Position numbers and translations under genes: made by a program
In this document: positions 12,818 through 14,972 of the stretch, one piece after another
How positions within the stretch are numbered: position 1 is the stretch's first letter
Layout: each line of letters opens with the position of its first letter
UHGV virus genome: UHGV-2198042
Reading direction: 5' to 3' (one strand)
Length of the DNA stretch: 18,814 nt
Origin: a virus
Notes under the pieces: model-generated
What the model was told of the DNA's origin: nothing
What the model saw: only the letters and a program-made list of their open reading frames with translations
The model's database searches: none

Positions 12818-13025
12818 AGGCCTCACCTCCGATTTTCCGGATGGTGCTGTGTGTGTGTTTGAAAAGGGTCAGGCTTCACGGGCTGGATTTATCAACAAAG
12901 CACGTAGCGGATGATTCCCGTGAGCCTGAAATTGATGAATATGTCTGAAATAACTAGACCATTAGTAAAACAACTCGATAAATGTGGTTAAATGAGACTA
13001 CGTTCTCACAACTTAATTAGTACCA

Positions 13026-13196
13026 ATGATTATCAAGCCCTGCCCCTACTGCGGAAAGTTAATTAACCCAGAATCACTTGTGTGTAGCCACTGCCGGATA
13101 GTGAATCCTTTTGTGAAGGCCAGCAGAAGAGAAAAAGCGAAGAATGTATTAGTAATCGCTCTCGTTGCTGCTTTTTTAATTTGGATGATTCTCTGA
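13026..13196 (+). CDS. small zinc-ribbon protein with C-terminal TM helix
   Basis: 56 aa below the ORF-track cutoff: MIIKPCPYCGKLINPESLVCSHCRIVNPFVKASRREKAKNVLVIALVAAFLIWMIL; CxxC...CxxC plus hydrophobic tail; no strong SD. Confidence 0.4.
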   Translation: MIIKPCPYCGKLINPESLVCSHCRIVNPFVKASRREKAKNVLVIALVAAFLIWMIL

Positions 13197-13633
13197 GTTG
13201 CCAGTTTTCAATGAAGATAATGCGGGCAAAAAAAGCCTGCTCGGACGAACAGGCATGAAAAATAACAATACCGTCAAGGAGGTGGCGCCGGGTGCCTCCC
13301 GGTGGAACAGCCCCAGCCGACTAGTTCCGCGCAAACAAACCTGGACAAAAAAGTTTGACTGGACGCCCCGCCGCATAGGGGGATTCACCACGAACCAAAA
13401 GATAAAATCATCCGGTGACCGGGGCAATATCTAACCGGAACTTTTCAGAATCACTTATTGTTTCCTGGAGAGTACATGAGCGTTGGTGAATTCACGTGAT
13501 GCTTTTGGATGAGCGCTGAACCCAAAGGTCAGTATTTTCACACAGCAATTTTGCAAAAAGCAGCGCCCATTCAAAACCAGGTCGCTTTCCAGTCACTCCG
13601 GGGAACCCATCATCGCAGACTGGAAAGCTTTTA

Positions 13634-13662
13634 CTGGAGCGGGCAAAGGAATCGAACCTCTG
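13634..13662 (-). tRNA. tRNA-like 3' fragment (T-arm plus acceptor-3', tRNA-Gly-like)
   Basis: Minus strand reads ...agaggTTCGATTcctttgcccgctCCA, resembling the 3' end of E. coli tRNA-Gly; no complementary 5' acceptor strand found upstream, so likely a relic. Confidence 0.3.
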
Positions 13663-13671
13663 ACGCGCAGC

Positions 13672-13926
13672 TTATTTCCAGCTTTCGCCATTTAAGGCTG
13701 AAAGCACTGTTTGATGTGTTACACCAAACATTCTCCCTAGCCCTCTGGCTCCATAAACCTTATGTCGTGGAATGTAGTTTTCTCTGATGAACTGGACGCT
13801 GTCCATTGTTAGCTTGCTCATACCATTCAGCTCACCAGCTACTAAGTAGCTAAGGTCAAATTTGGTTTTCTGAATGTGGCATGCAGAACATAGTAGTTGG
13901 CACTTTTCAACCTCAGCATAAAACAC
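13672..13926 (-). pseudogene. HNH endonuclease C-terminal fragment with HTH
   Basis: 84 aa starting at GTG directly after an in-frame TAG; contains CQLLCSACH (zinc-binding half of an HNH motif) and an HTH-like segment, but lacks the N-terminal catalytic part. Confidence 0.4.
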
Positions 13927-14133
13927 CTAATCTGAGTGATAGTGCATCTCGCTTACATTTGCTGATTTGGTGGAAGGGTCTATGTGGTCAAACTGAAGCG
14001 AATATTCGGATCCGCAACTCGCGCAACGACCACCCAACTTTTCCACGGTCTTAGCAAGCCTAGCCCTTCGATTAAGATAGTAATCTTTGCTCGGCATTTA
14101 CCACCTCTACCATTGGAGCTAAACCAGCATGTT

Positions 14134-14208
14134 TGGCGGGATAGCGTGGACTCGAACCACGATAAGAAGGTTAACAGCCTTCCGTAATGACCTTTATACG
14201 ACTGACCC
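14134..14208 (-). tRNA. tRNA-like element, anticodon GUU (Asn-like), probably degenerate
   Basis: 75 nt on minus strand: acceptor gggtcag, D-arm with A14 and GG, anticodon stem gaagg/ccttc with loop cuGUUaa, T-arm cgtgg-TTCGAGT-ccacg, 3' ctatccc-g-CCA; acceptor stem has 2 central mismatches. Confidence 0.35.
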
Positions 14209-14298
14209 AAATAAAAAAGCCACCGTTGCAACTTAAGAGTCACTAACGGCAGCTTATGCGAATAGTGTTGCTCATTTGCTCAATGATGTCAACACGTT

Positions 14299-14787
14299 CT
14301 ATGCTACATGTTTAATTTTCTCTACACGTTTCCGGTTTTTAAACGCACTATCCAGAACCGGGTAAATCATAAACAACGAGGCATTGAGGATTTCGTCAAC
14401 TTCCCGACGACAGGTTGCGAGCGATGGTTTTTGAATGCGCCCTCCGCCCCGGCATAACATCTTGCGAGGTCTTGCGACGCGATGATAGTAAGATGCAATG
14501 GCGTGCTTGGAAGATCCATGGGCGTAGTAGCTGAGGAGGATGCCAAAGGCTTTCTTGTCAATGTACATGACGGAATCGACGACCTGAGAAATCAACATTC
14601 CATCATCATCATTGCACATTGGCCTTGTCATAACTCTTCCCGGCTCTACGCTCTCCATGAACTTCGCTATTACGCTGCTCATGCGCTTTTCAAGACGACC
14701 TGAATAAACCCATGCCCCCCACAGTTCAAGCCAGCCATTCAGCCACTCGTGCTGCTCTTTGGTGAGGTTTAGTTCTCTTATGCCCAT
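14299..14787 (-). CDS. Q: late-gene antiterminator Q (non-lambda Q family)
   Basis: 162 aa ORF immediately downstream of ninH and upstream of the lysis cassette; several Cys/His; no similarity to lambda Q itself but the size fits small Q proteins (phage 21 type, from memory). Confidence 0.6.
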   Translation of the reverse strand: MGIRELNLTKEQHEWLNGWLELWGAWVYSGRLEKRMSSVIAKFMESVEPGRVMTRPMCNDDDGMLISQVVDSVMYIDKKAFGILLSYYAHGSSKHAIASYYHRVARPRKMLCRGGGRIQKPSLATCRREVDEILNASLFMIYPVLDSAFKNRKRVEKIKHVA

Positions 14788-14972
14788 CGTCTTCCCCTCT
14801 TGCCCTGTTTGACCATCAGGACGCCGTTAACTATTACGTGACGCTCGCCTTTGCTGTCTCGGTTGTACTTAAGCACTGTTCCTCTTGCGCAGGAAAGCAT
14901 CCTTGCCACTTCGGTCTGATTGCCTCGTGTCTGGATAAGAAGCTCTGGTATCGTTTGAATTGTGGCGTTCAT
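14778..14972 (-). CDS. ninH: NinH
   Basis: 64 aa; ...TIPELLIQTRGNQTEVARMLSCARGTVLKYNRD...HVIVNGVLMV closely matches lambda NinH as I recall it. Confidence 0.8.
   Translation of the reverse strand: MNATIQTIPELLIQTRGNQTEVARMLSCARGTVLKYNRDSKGERHVIVNGVLMVKQGKRGRRWA

Follow-up and report, generated by a model that had tools for sequence, protein, structure and literature searches.

A candidate homing endonuclease gene, now degenerating, within tRNA-Thr(UGU) of a phage-21-type tRNA cluster

MobE, in nrdA of phage Aeh1, is a homing endonuclease gene that splits its host gene without an intron, and the split nrdA gives a working enzyme from two polypeptides. Group I introns, some with endonuclease ORFs, occur in the anticodon-arm region of bacterial tRNA genes. 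In phage T4, the free-standing GIY-YIG homing endonuclease SegB is encoded in the tRNA gene cluster, has a recognition site that includes a conserved tRNA gene motif and is preferentially inherited in crosses; its expression is thought to be limited by tRNA processing, because the segB stop codon abuts a tRNA gene (PMC2330249). HNH-type endonucleases likewise reside in tRNA clusters, namely F-TflI/II/IV of phage T5 and the array enzymes of mycobacteriophages and other phages, which sit between intact tRNA genes and sometimes overlap the next one by 10-32 nt (PMC2330249; PMC5966550; PMC6409571). Among lambdoid phages, a tRNA-Asn/tRNA-Thr pair lies downstream of the antiterminator gene Q in phage 21, SfI, Sf6, ST64T and PS3 (PMC3636060; OL657228 annotation).

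The locus described here lies in a window of 18,814 nt, the whole stretch of DNA that was analysed. Like segB, its endonuclease gene is embedded in a phage tRNA cluster. In contrast to the GIY-YIG enzyme SegB, encoded between tRNA genes, it is an HNH cassette placed inside one, with deletion of the anticodon; SegB activity has been demonstrated, whereas we infer that of the window element. HNH type and tRNA-cluster residence are shared with the T5 and mycobacteriophage enzymes, but the cassette splits a tRNA gene instead of sitting between intact ones. As with MobE in nrdA, an intron-less ORF lies within a gene and its insertion disrupts the presumed target; unlike nrdA, the split tRNA-Thr cannot work, having lost 12 nt that include anticodon bases. 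The insertion in the anticodon arm and the presence of an endonuclease ORF recall group I introns, but the insert lacks a ribozyme, the exons are incomplete, and no Rfam intron family is matched.

The setting is a lambdoid prophage of E. coli type, and the interval is that from Q to the lysis genes. All features of the island are on the minus strand, and coordinates refer to the whole window (Table 1). The Q protein is 97.9% identical to that of phage 21 (OL657228), with which it aligns at the annotated antiterminator. The parts of the late promoter, transferred by alignment, are a -35 element at 14287-14292, the Q-binding element at 14269-14284, a -10 element at 14264-14269 and the start at 14257; in a simple promoter scan, the stretch from pR' to the HNH ORF showed no sigma-70-like site. 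By homology, the end of tR' directly adjoins the first base of tRNA-Asn: the phage 21 annotation places the terminator at 39543-39590 and tRNA-Asn at 39591, followed at the homologous place by an intact tRNA-Thr. The ancestral order was Q, pR'/tR', tRNA-Asn(GUU), tRNA-Thr(UGU), sometimes more tRNAs, and then the lysis genes. The window resembles the phage 21 group in the position of the cluster directly after pR'/tR' and in the first 23 nt of tRNA-Thr, which are identical. It differs in that tRNA-Thr is split by the HNH gene, that tRNA-Asn has a private G68A change, and that the 3' half of tRNA-Thr derives from a different Thr allele, one that carries a Gly-type tail. The inverted-repeat flank of the island is also found after tRNA-Gly in two endonuclease-free relatives, L007 and L008.

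Table 1. Features of the Q-to-lysis interval, in window coordinates
Feature	Position	Strand	Basis
Q antiterminator gene, phage-21 type, 162 aa (context)	14299..14787	-	ORF
pR' late promoter with Q-binding element	14257..14292	-	Placed by homology to phage 21
tR' terminator of the late leader	14209..14255	-	By homology: phage 21 annotation and alignment
tRNA-Asn(GUU), complete gene with encoded CCA	14134..14208	-	ARAGORN; Rfam RF00005, 51.0 bits
Private G68-to-A in tRNA-Asn, giving C5.A68 beside the conserved U4.U69	14142	-	Alignment
5' fragment of tRNA-Thr(UGU), phage-21 allele, gctggtttagctccaatggtaga	14106..14128	-	Same sequence as the first 23 nt of tRNA-Thr annotated in phage 21
Inserted cassette, 431 nt: 8-nt leader ggtggtaa and 141 sense codons	13675..14105	-	Empty-site comparison
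HNH endonuclease ORF, 141 codons and TAA; apparent pseudogene here	13672..14097	-	Translation; intact orthologue
TAG in frame at codon 57, with base 13928 changed (all relatives have TCG, Ser)	13927..13929	-	
3' relic of tRNA-Thr(UGU), 40 nt, with Gly-type tail	13635..13674	-	Alignment to L009 and L008
10-bp inverted repeat ctttccagtc...gactggaaag	13585..13627	-	Sequence; just downstream of the 3' relic

The first-pass annotation, made from the letters alone, had started from two minus-strand T-loops, and both were recovered (GGTTCGAGTCC at 14148-14158 and GGTTCGATTCC at 13648-13658), with two occurrences of GGTTCRANTCC found against 0.07 expected by chance. It had described the first element as a nearly complete tRNA with anticodon GUU and two acceptor mismatches; the anticodon, the mismatches and the CCA were borne out, but the gene is complete and one of the mismatches, U4.U69, is a family trait. 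The predictor and covariance-model check that it had proposed also came out in favour of a tRNA. ARAGORN called tRNA-Asn(gtt) in standard and relaxed modes, the sole tRNA called by this program in the 18.8-kb window, and the Rfam RF00005 score of 51.0 bits lies above the 29-bit gathering threshold, with the GUU anticodon in a 7-nt loop. The tRNA gene is genuine and complete; it is likewise annotated in phage 21, SfI and Sf6 and is also present in 369 complete E. coli genomes, the best copies of which match the window at 84 of the 85 nt compared.

The acceptor stem of tRNA-Asn has the mismatches U4.U69 and C5.A68, and the discriminator base is G. U4.U69 was kept in 17/17 phage tRNA-Asn alleles compared. 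By eye, these 17 alleles display compensatory changes in the T stem, in acceptor pairs 6-67 and 7-66 and in the anticodon stem, the last with the variants GAAGG/CCUUC, UUCGG/CCGAA and GCAGG/CCUGC. The A68 allele of the window was found at none of 393 places in the 369 complete E. coli genomes. Relative to the phage 21 allele, G68A costs 4.3 bits in the Rfam score and 3.8 kcal/mol in folding energy (MFE of -17.8 versus -21.6 kcal/mol). The change probably weakens tRNA-Asn, not necessarily abolishing function, and the tRNA may still be functional. Its transcription would take place only under Q antitermination.

The second element had been taken for a Gly-like 3' end and nothing else. The Gly tail, GCCCGCUCCA, was confirmed and matches the 3' end of phage tRNA-Gly(UCC), but positions 13640-13674 belong to tRNA-Thr(UGU), being 100% identical to the part of the intact gene of E. 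coli MLI104K1 (L009) that runs from the anticodon loop to the T arm. In order, the relic consists of U36-A37-A38, the anticodon-stem 3' strand, the variable loop, the T arm, a Gly-type acceptor 3' end and CCA. From 13658 downstream it can be aligned to the tRNA-Gly(UCC) gene of L008 and the sequence that follows it, and the Gly-type part is confined to the final ~11 nt and the flank downstream of them. The Gly-like end stems from an older Thr/Gly fusion, and the same tail is found on an endonuclease-free tRNA-Thr in E. coli OW1E2 (L007). Furthermore, the island holds not two tRNA elements, as had been proposed, but three pieces: the intact tRNA-Asn and two halves of tRNA-Thr(UGU), the 5' one of which had been missed. 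This 5' fragment covers the acceptor 5' strand, the D stem-loop and the first bases of the D-stem 3' strand.

Intact tRNA-Thr genes in MLI104K1 and OW1E2 are collinear with both fragments. Comparison with them and with 64 IMG/VR contigs that carry the empty site showed that 12 nt of the gene were replaced, from the last part of the D stem through nucleotide 26 and the anticodon-stem 5' strand to C32-U33-U34-G35. With U34-G35 among the lost 12 nt, the window contains no contiguous tRNA-Thr cloverleaf with an anticodon; the 5' and 3' acceptor strands, moreover, come from different alleles and pair poorly. The tRNA-Thr gene is destroyed and its two pieces are relics of one gene, which exist because insertion of the cassette replaced the 12 nt. 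The description of the interval as a decayed tRNA/endonuclease island holds as far as the island and its partial decay go; the HNH gene does not merely lie between relics, since its insertion made them.

The cassette is compact: 423 of its 431 nt are coding, and tRNA-Thr contributes part of the ribosome-binding site and the stop codon of the ORF. The leader ggtggtaa joins tRNA bases to form the Shine-Dalgarno sequence AGAGGTGG ahead of the ATG at 14095-14097, and the TAA at 13672-13674 is U36-A37-A38 of tRNA-Thr. An intact 141-aa orthologue, WP_001568783.1, is present in KL53 and L6-21; it scores 23.4 bits with Pfam HNH (PF01844), against a cut-off of 21.4 bits. The protein also matches PHROG 4234 at 1.5e-21, and C24, C27, D36, H37, C65, C69 and H73 are invariant among homologues (CxxC...DH...CxxxC..H). 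AlphaFold modelled the N-terminal domain at a pLDDT of about 90; the C-terminal domain, predicted to bind DNA, was modelled with low confidence (pLDDT 58-70). A Foldseek search of the PDB with this model gave HNH and helix-turn-helix matches, none of them significant (best E 0.4), and a PDB sequence search with the HNH protein returned nothing. Over 11 HNH alleles, pooled pN/pS was 0.23 and 32 of the 57 variable sites were third codon positions, a pattern that indicates purifying selection on the ORF in the relatives.

The HNH gene had been described as headless. This did not hold: the full 141 codons, with ATG and Shine-Dalgarno sequence, are present and interrupted by one TAG only, and the earlier reading probably took in just the 84-codon ORF downstream of it. 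The TAG arose by a single C-to-A change, is the sole break in the 141-codon frame and falls after the catalytic residues D36-H37 but ahead of C65..C69..H73, so that the protein is cut short before the HNH metal finger reaches its second half. Among the 11 HNH alleles it is found in the window allele only, which has two other private changes in the ORF, both non-synonymous. The window copy is apparently a pseudogene; the alternatives would be suppression of the TAG or a sequencing error confined to this record. A suppressor tRNA reading TAG was considered and rejected, tRNA-Asn being the only tRNA within the 18.8-kb window. In the sister lineage ECONIH5, a 1,035-bp deletion has removed most of the HNH gene. 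The element is evidently in a degeneration phase in this window.

Two further candidates at this locus were rejected. One was that the 3' end of the ORF is a decayed duplicate of the tRNA-Thr 5' half, on the model of relatives whose ORFs overlap the next tRNA; local alignment was no better than with shuffles (p about 0.055; an unrelated 7-mer). An alternative anticodon stem before the relic, AGCU...AGCU, needs a window-private base according to the alignment and is without U33.

Lambdoid phages are highly mosaic, and HNH-bearing loci displayed 16 distinct flank combinations. The cassette junction, by comparison, was identical in all HNH-bearing loci examined: it does not change with the Thr 5' allele, of which there are two diverged types, or with the genes that precede it (Asn, Asn-Gly or Phe), and it occurs with at least three Q types. 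Among the 80 IMG/VR matches listed for the 3' half of tRNA-Thr, 64 were intact and 15 carried the HNH gene. At a single fixed position, the cassette is thus present in some loci and absent from others, in which the allele is empty and intact. The phage-21-type allele retains its own sequence to within 4 nt of the cassette, and such retention next to the junction would be the outcome expected if a break there had been repaired; the case for a crossover at the very junction comes from one comparison only, that of the phage-21-type with the common Thr 5' allele. A search for loci that share both flanks and differ only by the cassette found none; sharing was limited to a single flank.

We infer that the element is probably a free-standing homing endonuclease gene that targets tRNA-Thr, now degenerating in a phage-21-type tRNA cluster. 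During lytic growth, the HNH enzyme would be made from the late pR' transcript and would cleave, close to the D/anticodon-arm region, the intact tRNA-Thr gene of a related phage resident in the same cell. The cassette would then be copied into the cut gene as the break is repaired with the HNH-bearing genome as template. The insertion removes the presumed target site, and the carrier would therefore be protected. For the window itself this is of little import, as it is an ordinary prophage region in which a selfish gene and a split tRNA are decaying. Its annotation is corrected to one apparently live tRNA-Asn, one dead two-piece tRNA-Thr and one HNH gene that appears inactivated by a nonsense change. 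The intact relatives form a compact and tractable test case: the enzyme has 141 aa, the mobile unit is 431 nt long, and E. coli prophages provide natural empty sites. From it one could learn how tRNA-cluster endonucleases recognise tRNA genes and whether they drive phage tRNA turnover.

The fixed junction might also have arisen without recurrent homing, if one ancient HNH insertion in tRNA-Thr had spread only by ordinary modular recombination, with an enzyme that has lost the ability to home, or never had it, and whose role may be another, for example the reshuffling of tRNA arrays. The extreme mosaicism of the flanks fits such a passive history, as does the lack of a pair that shares both flanks and differs in the cassette; HNH enzymes in tRNA arrays have indeed been proposed to diversify tRNA repertoires, not simply to home (PMC5966550). 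However, a pN/pS of 0.23 points to purifying selection on the ORF across many backgrounds, the cassette occurs at an intermediate frequency (15/80 among the matches listed), the relics are identical to the corresponding parts of intact alleles, and the distant relatives likewise reside in tRNA arrays. Random crossovers in 75%-identical 23-nt segments, moreover, would rarely leave the 5' fragment preserved to 4 nt of the cassette. We consider passive spread unlikely.

Two independent relics, one Asn-like and one from a tRNA-Gly 3' end, around a 5'-truncated HNH fragment would account for the Gly-type character of the last ~11 nt of the 3' element with its flank, and for the 84-codon ORF without an upstream ATG after the TAG. 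This is very improbable given the full 141-codon frame with its ATG and Shine-Dalgarno sequence, the 100% match of 13640-13674 to tRNA-Thr, the Thr 5' fragment on the other side and the empty-site alleles that unite both fragments as one gene. A self-splicing intron with the HNH ORF inside it, or a split tRNA, from either of which a functional tRNA-Thr is still made, would suit the position of the ORF in the anticodon-arm region and the retention of both tRNA ends. It is hardly credible here: the insert does not make good the 12 missing tRNA nucleotides, among them the anticodon-stem 5' strand and two anticodon bases, and the two acceptor strands, drawn from different alleles, pair poorly. There is also no room for a ribozyme, because 98% of the insert is ORF; no Rfam intron family was matched even at E up to 10, and ARAGORN with introns allowed gave no tRNA-Thr, only spurious low-threshold calls. 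Finally, tRNA 3' ends are frequent targets of integrases, whose action leaves partial copies behind, and the fragments could be an att-site duplication after site-specific integration. Yet neither an integrase nor a direct repeat was found at the junctions, the two fragments do not overlap and make up the 5' and 3' parts of a single gene short of 12 nt, and the insert is a single 431-nt ORF cassette, which leaves this origin with next to no probability.

Beyond the homing of this element, the distant homologues point, more tentatively, to a possible cross-phylum HNH clade specialised on tRNA-gene DNA. Its enterobacterial member would home, without an intron, into the D/anticodon-arm region of phage tRNA-Thr(UGU), deleting the anticodon and borrowing tRNA bases for its ribosome-binding site and stop codon. 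If so, the element persists by wrecking a dispensable cargo gene, and the clade would be a general driver of tRNA gain and loss in phage repertoires. Phage tRNAs are known to counter tRNA-cleaving host defences, which has raised interest in whether such endonucleases drive the turnover of phage tRNA sets. An annotated phage reference for the element is absent, because no close homologue of the HNH protein was found in 50,697 isolated phage records; a one-genome-per-species scan gave no confirmed relative. The distant homologues are 37-52% identical, in most cases over the HNH domain, and most of those aligned are without the C-terminal domain of this protein. The phages that carry them infect Mycobacterium, Streptomyces, Microbacterium, Curtobacterium, Bacillus, Acinetobacter and Escherichia. 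In location, the window element agrees with a clade of HNH genes resident in tRNA arrays. The distant homologues number 409 in all. All eight sampled distant homologues of the N-terminal domain from isolated phages, with hosts in the Actinobacteria, Firmicutes and Proteobacteria, lie inside tRNA arrays. MLP3, which matches the C-terminal domain only, lies outside a tRNA array, and a metagenomic homologue (P0004) lies between two tRNA-Lys genes.

The window is a lambdoid prophage of the E. coli type, 97.9% identical to phage 21 in alignment over 14105-14802, and all relevant features of its tRNA island lie on the minus strand. Phage 21 annotation places the Q antiterminator gene first, followed by the late promoter pR' and its Q-binding element, then the terminator tR', tRNA-Asn and tRNA-Thr(UGU); the first base of tRNA-Asn is the base right after the terminator, and tRNA-Thr(UGU) lies five bases beyond tRNA-Asn. 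Coordinates of Q, pR' and tR' in the window were transferred from this annotation. The Asn-Thr pair 3' of Q was already known in SfI, Sf6, ST64T, PS3 and phage 21 (PMC3636060).

Features of the tRNA island and its surroundings in the window
Feature	Coordinates	Strand	Basis or remark
Q antiterminator gene	14299-14787	minus	phage 21 homology
pR' and Q-binding element	about 14257-14292	minus	by homology, phage 21
tR' terminator	14209-14255	minus	by homology, phage 21
tRNA-Asn(GUU)	14134-14208	minus	ARAGORN
T-loop motif GGTTCGAGTCC	14148-14158	minus	
tRNA-Thr 5' piece, gctggtttagctccaatggtaga	14106-14128	minus	identical to phage 21 tRNA-Thr start
Cassette, 431 nt	14105-13675	minus	intact versus occupied alleles
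HNH ORF, 141 codons	14097-13672	minus	translation, ATG to TAA
In-frame TAG	13927-13929	minus	
tRNA-Thr 3' piece	13640-13674	minus	100% identity to 3' part of intact tRNA-Thr(UGU), E. coli MLI104K1
T-loop motif GGTTCGATTCC	13648-13658	minus	
Inverted repeat, 10 bp, 23-nt loop	13585-13627	minus	directly 3' of tRNA relic
Rfam STnc100, full-length match	13224-13416	minus	71.7 bits, threshold 47
Terminator-like hairpin	13235-13254	minus	3' end of STnc100 match

The first-pass annotation, which read the region as a decayed tRNA/endonuclease island, was partly confirmed in its observations and partly supported in its interpretation. The two T-loop motifs that it reported are real: GGTTCRANTCC matches the window twice, against 0.07 matches expected from shuffles. 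The element with anticodon GUU was likewise recovered as the only tRNA called by ARAGORN in the whole window, scoring 51.0 bits with the Rfam tRNA model (threshold 29) and ending in discriminator G followed by CCA. Both acceptor-stem mismatches described for it are present, U4.U69 and C5.A68. U4.U69 recurs in 17/17 phage tRNA-Asn alleles from the window and the loci compared with it, whose divergence elsewhere reaches about 30% and in which the pairs beside it vary with compensation; it is a family trait and not decay. G68A (window 14142) is private to the window: this tRNA-Asn occurs 393 times across 369 complete E. coli genomes, never with the change. The Rfam score is 51.0 bits with it and 55.3 bits without, and the fold energies are -17.8 and -21.6 kcal/mol, respectively. 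E. coli KL53 has its own private, possibly damaging U-to-C change in the T loop, equivalent to window 14150.

The earlier count of two tRNA elements missed a third, the tRNA-Thr 5' piece, which a five-base spacer separates from the Asn gene. This piece and the 3' piece are the halves of a single gene. Insertion boundaries were defined by side-by-side comparison of intact alleles, which read gccggtctagttcagtggcaga, ACGGCAGCCTTG, taagctgcgcgtcagaggttcgattcc..., and occupied alleles, which read gccggtctagttcagtggcaga, ggtggtaaATG...tggaaa, taagctgcgcgtcagaggttcgattcc...; the cassette therefore stands in place of 12 nt of the tRNA-Thr gene. The replaced stretch runs from the last bases of the D stem through nucleotide 26 and the 5' side of the anticodon stem to C32-U33-U34-G35. 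U36-A37-A38 form the TAA stop of the HNH ORF, whose ATG follows AGAGGTGG and whose Shine-Dalgarno sequence is partly D-stem sequence.

The second element had been described as a tRNA-Gly-like 3' end. This holds for its last ~11 nt (tgcccgctcca) and downstream flank, which correspond to the 3' end of a phage tRNA-Gly(UCC) and its flank (97.8% against E. coli MS 115-1), and fails for 13640-13674, which is tRNA-Thr. The apparent crossover lies in a shared hexamer, tgcccg (13640-13645). The same Thr/Gly-tailed gene occurs in E. coli OW1E2 without the endonuclease, so that the fusion predates, or is independent of, the insertion. The inverted repeat is kept 3' of tRNA-Gly in relatives without the endonuclease.

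We rejected an intron or a working split tRNA, because the insert does not provide the 12 missing nucleotides and ARAGORN with introns allowed returned no tRNA-Thr; moreover, the insert is nearly all ORF, and no intron family was hit in Rfam, even with E allowed up to 10. An att-site relic was also rejected, as neither a recombinase gene nor direct repeats are present.

The HNH ORF, previously called a headless fragment, is complete from ATG to TAA, and the in-frame TAG is its sole break. Codon 57 is TCG in the intact copies of E. coli KL53, L6-21 and PEC422, annotated as a 141-aa HNH endonuclease. The intact protein matches Pfam HNH (23.4 bits, cut-off 21.4) and PHROG 4234 (HNH endonuclease; 1.5e-21). 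C24, C27, D36, H37, C65, C69 and H73 are invariant in an alignment including distant relatives, and the stop therefore separates the two halves of the metal finger. AlphaFold modelled residues 1-80 confidently (pLDDT about 90) and a three-helix C-terminal domain weakly (pLDDT 58-70). Foldseek against the PDB gave HNH and helix-turn-helix matches, none significant, and a PDB sequence search gave no match. Among 11 distinct alleles, pooled pN/pS was 0.23 and only the window has a premature stop. One IMG/VR allele carries a private, possibly damaging change of catalytic His37 to Arg.

At 90% identity the protein falls into a single cluster of 59 sequences, drawn from E. coli, Salmonella Tennessee and several Enterobacter species; no close homologue was found in isolated phages (50,697 records). 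The full element is present in 4 of 5,426 complete E. coli genomes, with a remnant in two more, and in 18 IMG/VR contigs. Among 80 listed IMG/VR contigs with this tRNA-Thr 3' half, 64 are intact, 15 carry the cassette and 1 is a variant. The junction is the same in every occupied locus, in backgrounds comprising two diverged Thr 5' alleles, upstream Asn, Asn-Gly or Phe genes, Arg or nothing downstream, at least three Q types and 16 distinct flank combinations. In no occupied locus is there another intact tRNA-Thr close to the cassette.

Against its two closest relatives the window shows seven private differences in 1.4 kb: three in the HNH ORF, none synonymous (A17T, S57stop, T139S), G68A in tRNA-Asn, and three further downstream (12845, 12837, 12819). 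In a sister lineage, E. coli ECONIH5 and one IMG/VR locus, a 1,035-bp deletion (window 12968-14002) has taken the STnc100-like element, the tRNA-Thr 3' relic and the greater part of the HNH gene; only the Thr 5' fragment and 32 ORF codons are left of the interrupted gene and its insert. The ECONIH5 prophage is almost the same as the window, with 99.6% identity across the lysis genes. Taken together, these features match the course typical of a homing endonuclease gene, from invasion through decay to loss.

These comparisons establish an insertion, a fixed junction and selection on the HNH ORF; homing by the enzyme is what we infer. The Q-dependent late transcript would supply the enzyme, as a promoter scan found no separate promoter-like site for the ORF. 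Its cleavage targets would be intact tRNA-Thr genes in co-resident relatives, the cassette would be copied into the cut gene during repair, and the insertion would remove the target site. The main rival is one old insertion spread passively by ordinary lambdoid mosaicism, and in its favor no locus pair was found with both flanks identical and the cassette as sole difference. The best single hint of homing comes from the phage-21-type allele, whose own diverged sequence is retained as close as 4 nt from the cassette (ggTAGAG vs ggCAGAG). Such retention is expected from break repair at the site, whereas a random crossover in a ~75%-identical 23-nt stretch is an unlikely account of it.

Distant homologues (37-52% identity, mostly over the N-terminal HNH domain) were found in 409 phage records. 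All eight N-domain homologues inspected lie inside tRNA arrays: Streptomyces phage Mildred21, Escherichia phage JohannJBalmer, Mycobacterium phages Crossroads and BackyardAgain (in the latter, the gene is flanked by tRNA-Thr(UGU) and tRNA-Thr(GGU)), Microbacterium phage Magritte, Bacillus phage Vinny, Acinetobacter phage Aci05 and Curtobacterium phage Yappy. In three of the eight, the last 10-32 nt of the annotated ORF overlap the next tRNA gene (L149, 1858-1878; L150, 1829-1860; L152, 1258-1267), resembling the T4 segB/tRNA-Arg overlap, which is thought to limit endonuclease expression via tRNA processing. A metagenomic homologue is flanked by two tRNA-Lys genes, and MLP3, the sole hit matching the C-terminal domain alone, is not in a tRNA array. 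That tRNA arrays contain HNH genes more often than any other coding sequence has been recorded before (PMC5966550), and T4 SegB, a proven homing endonuclease of a tRNA cluster, recognises a tRNA gene motif (PMC2330249). The window element is a new but unremarkable example of an endonuclease gene resident in a phage tRNA cluster, unusual only in lying inside a tRNA gene and not beside one.

E. coli UTME-3 carries a different endonuclease gene (2153-2842; 170 aa, Pfam HNH_3 plus AP2) as a 690-bp insert that separates the pR' start from tR' in a late leader of the phage-21 type (window ~14249-14256), upstream of intact Asn-Thr-Gly tRNAs and with eight window bases matched on both sides. Endonuclease genes thus seem to have landed repeatedly in the leader/tRNA region. 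The STnc100 element, between the holin gene and the tRNA island, is also present in E. coli L6-21 and OW1E2. In L6-21, an Rfam isrJ match (2818-2891; 68.7 bits) occupies the short stretch from a 229-aa Q gene to tRNA-Asn, and this 'sRNA' family seems to represent the leader that follows the late promoter of that Q type. In the endonuclease-free prophage tRNA cluster of E. coli MS 115-1, an odd tRNA-like element (2296-2369), with an anticodon undefined by ARAGORN and no gene in the RefSeq annotation, is flanked by a CAU-anticodon tRNA and tRNA-Thr.
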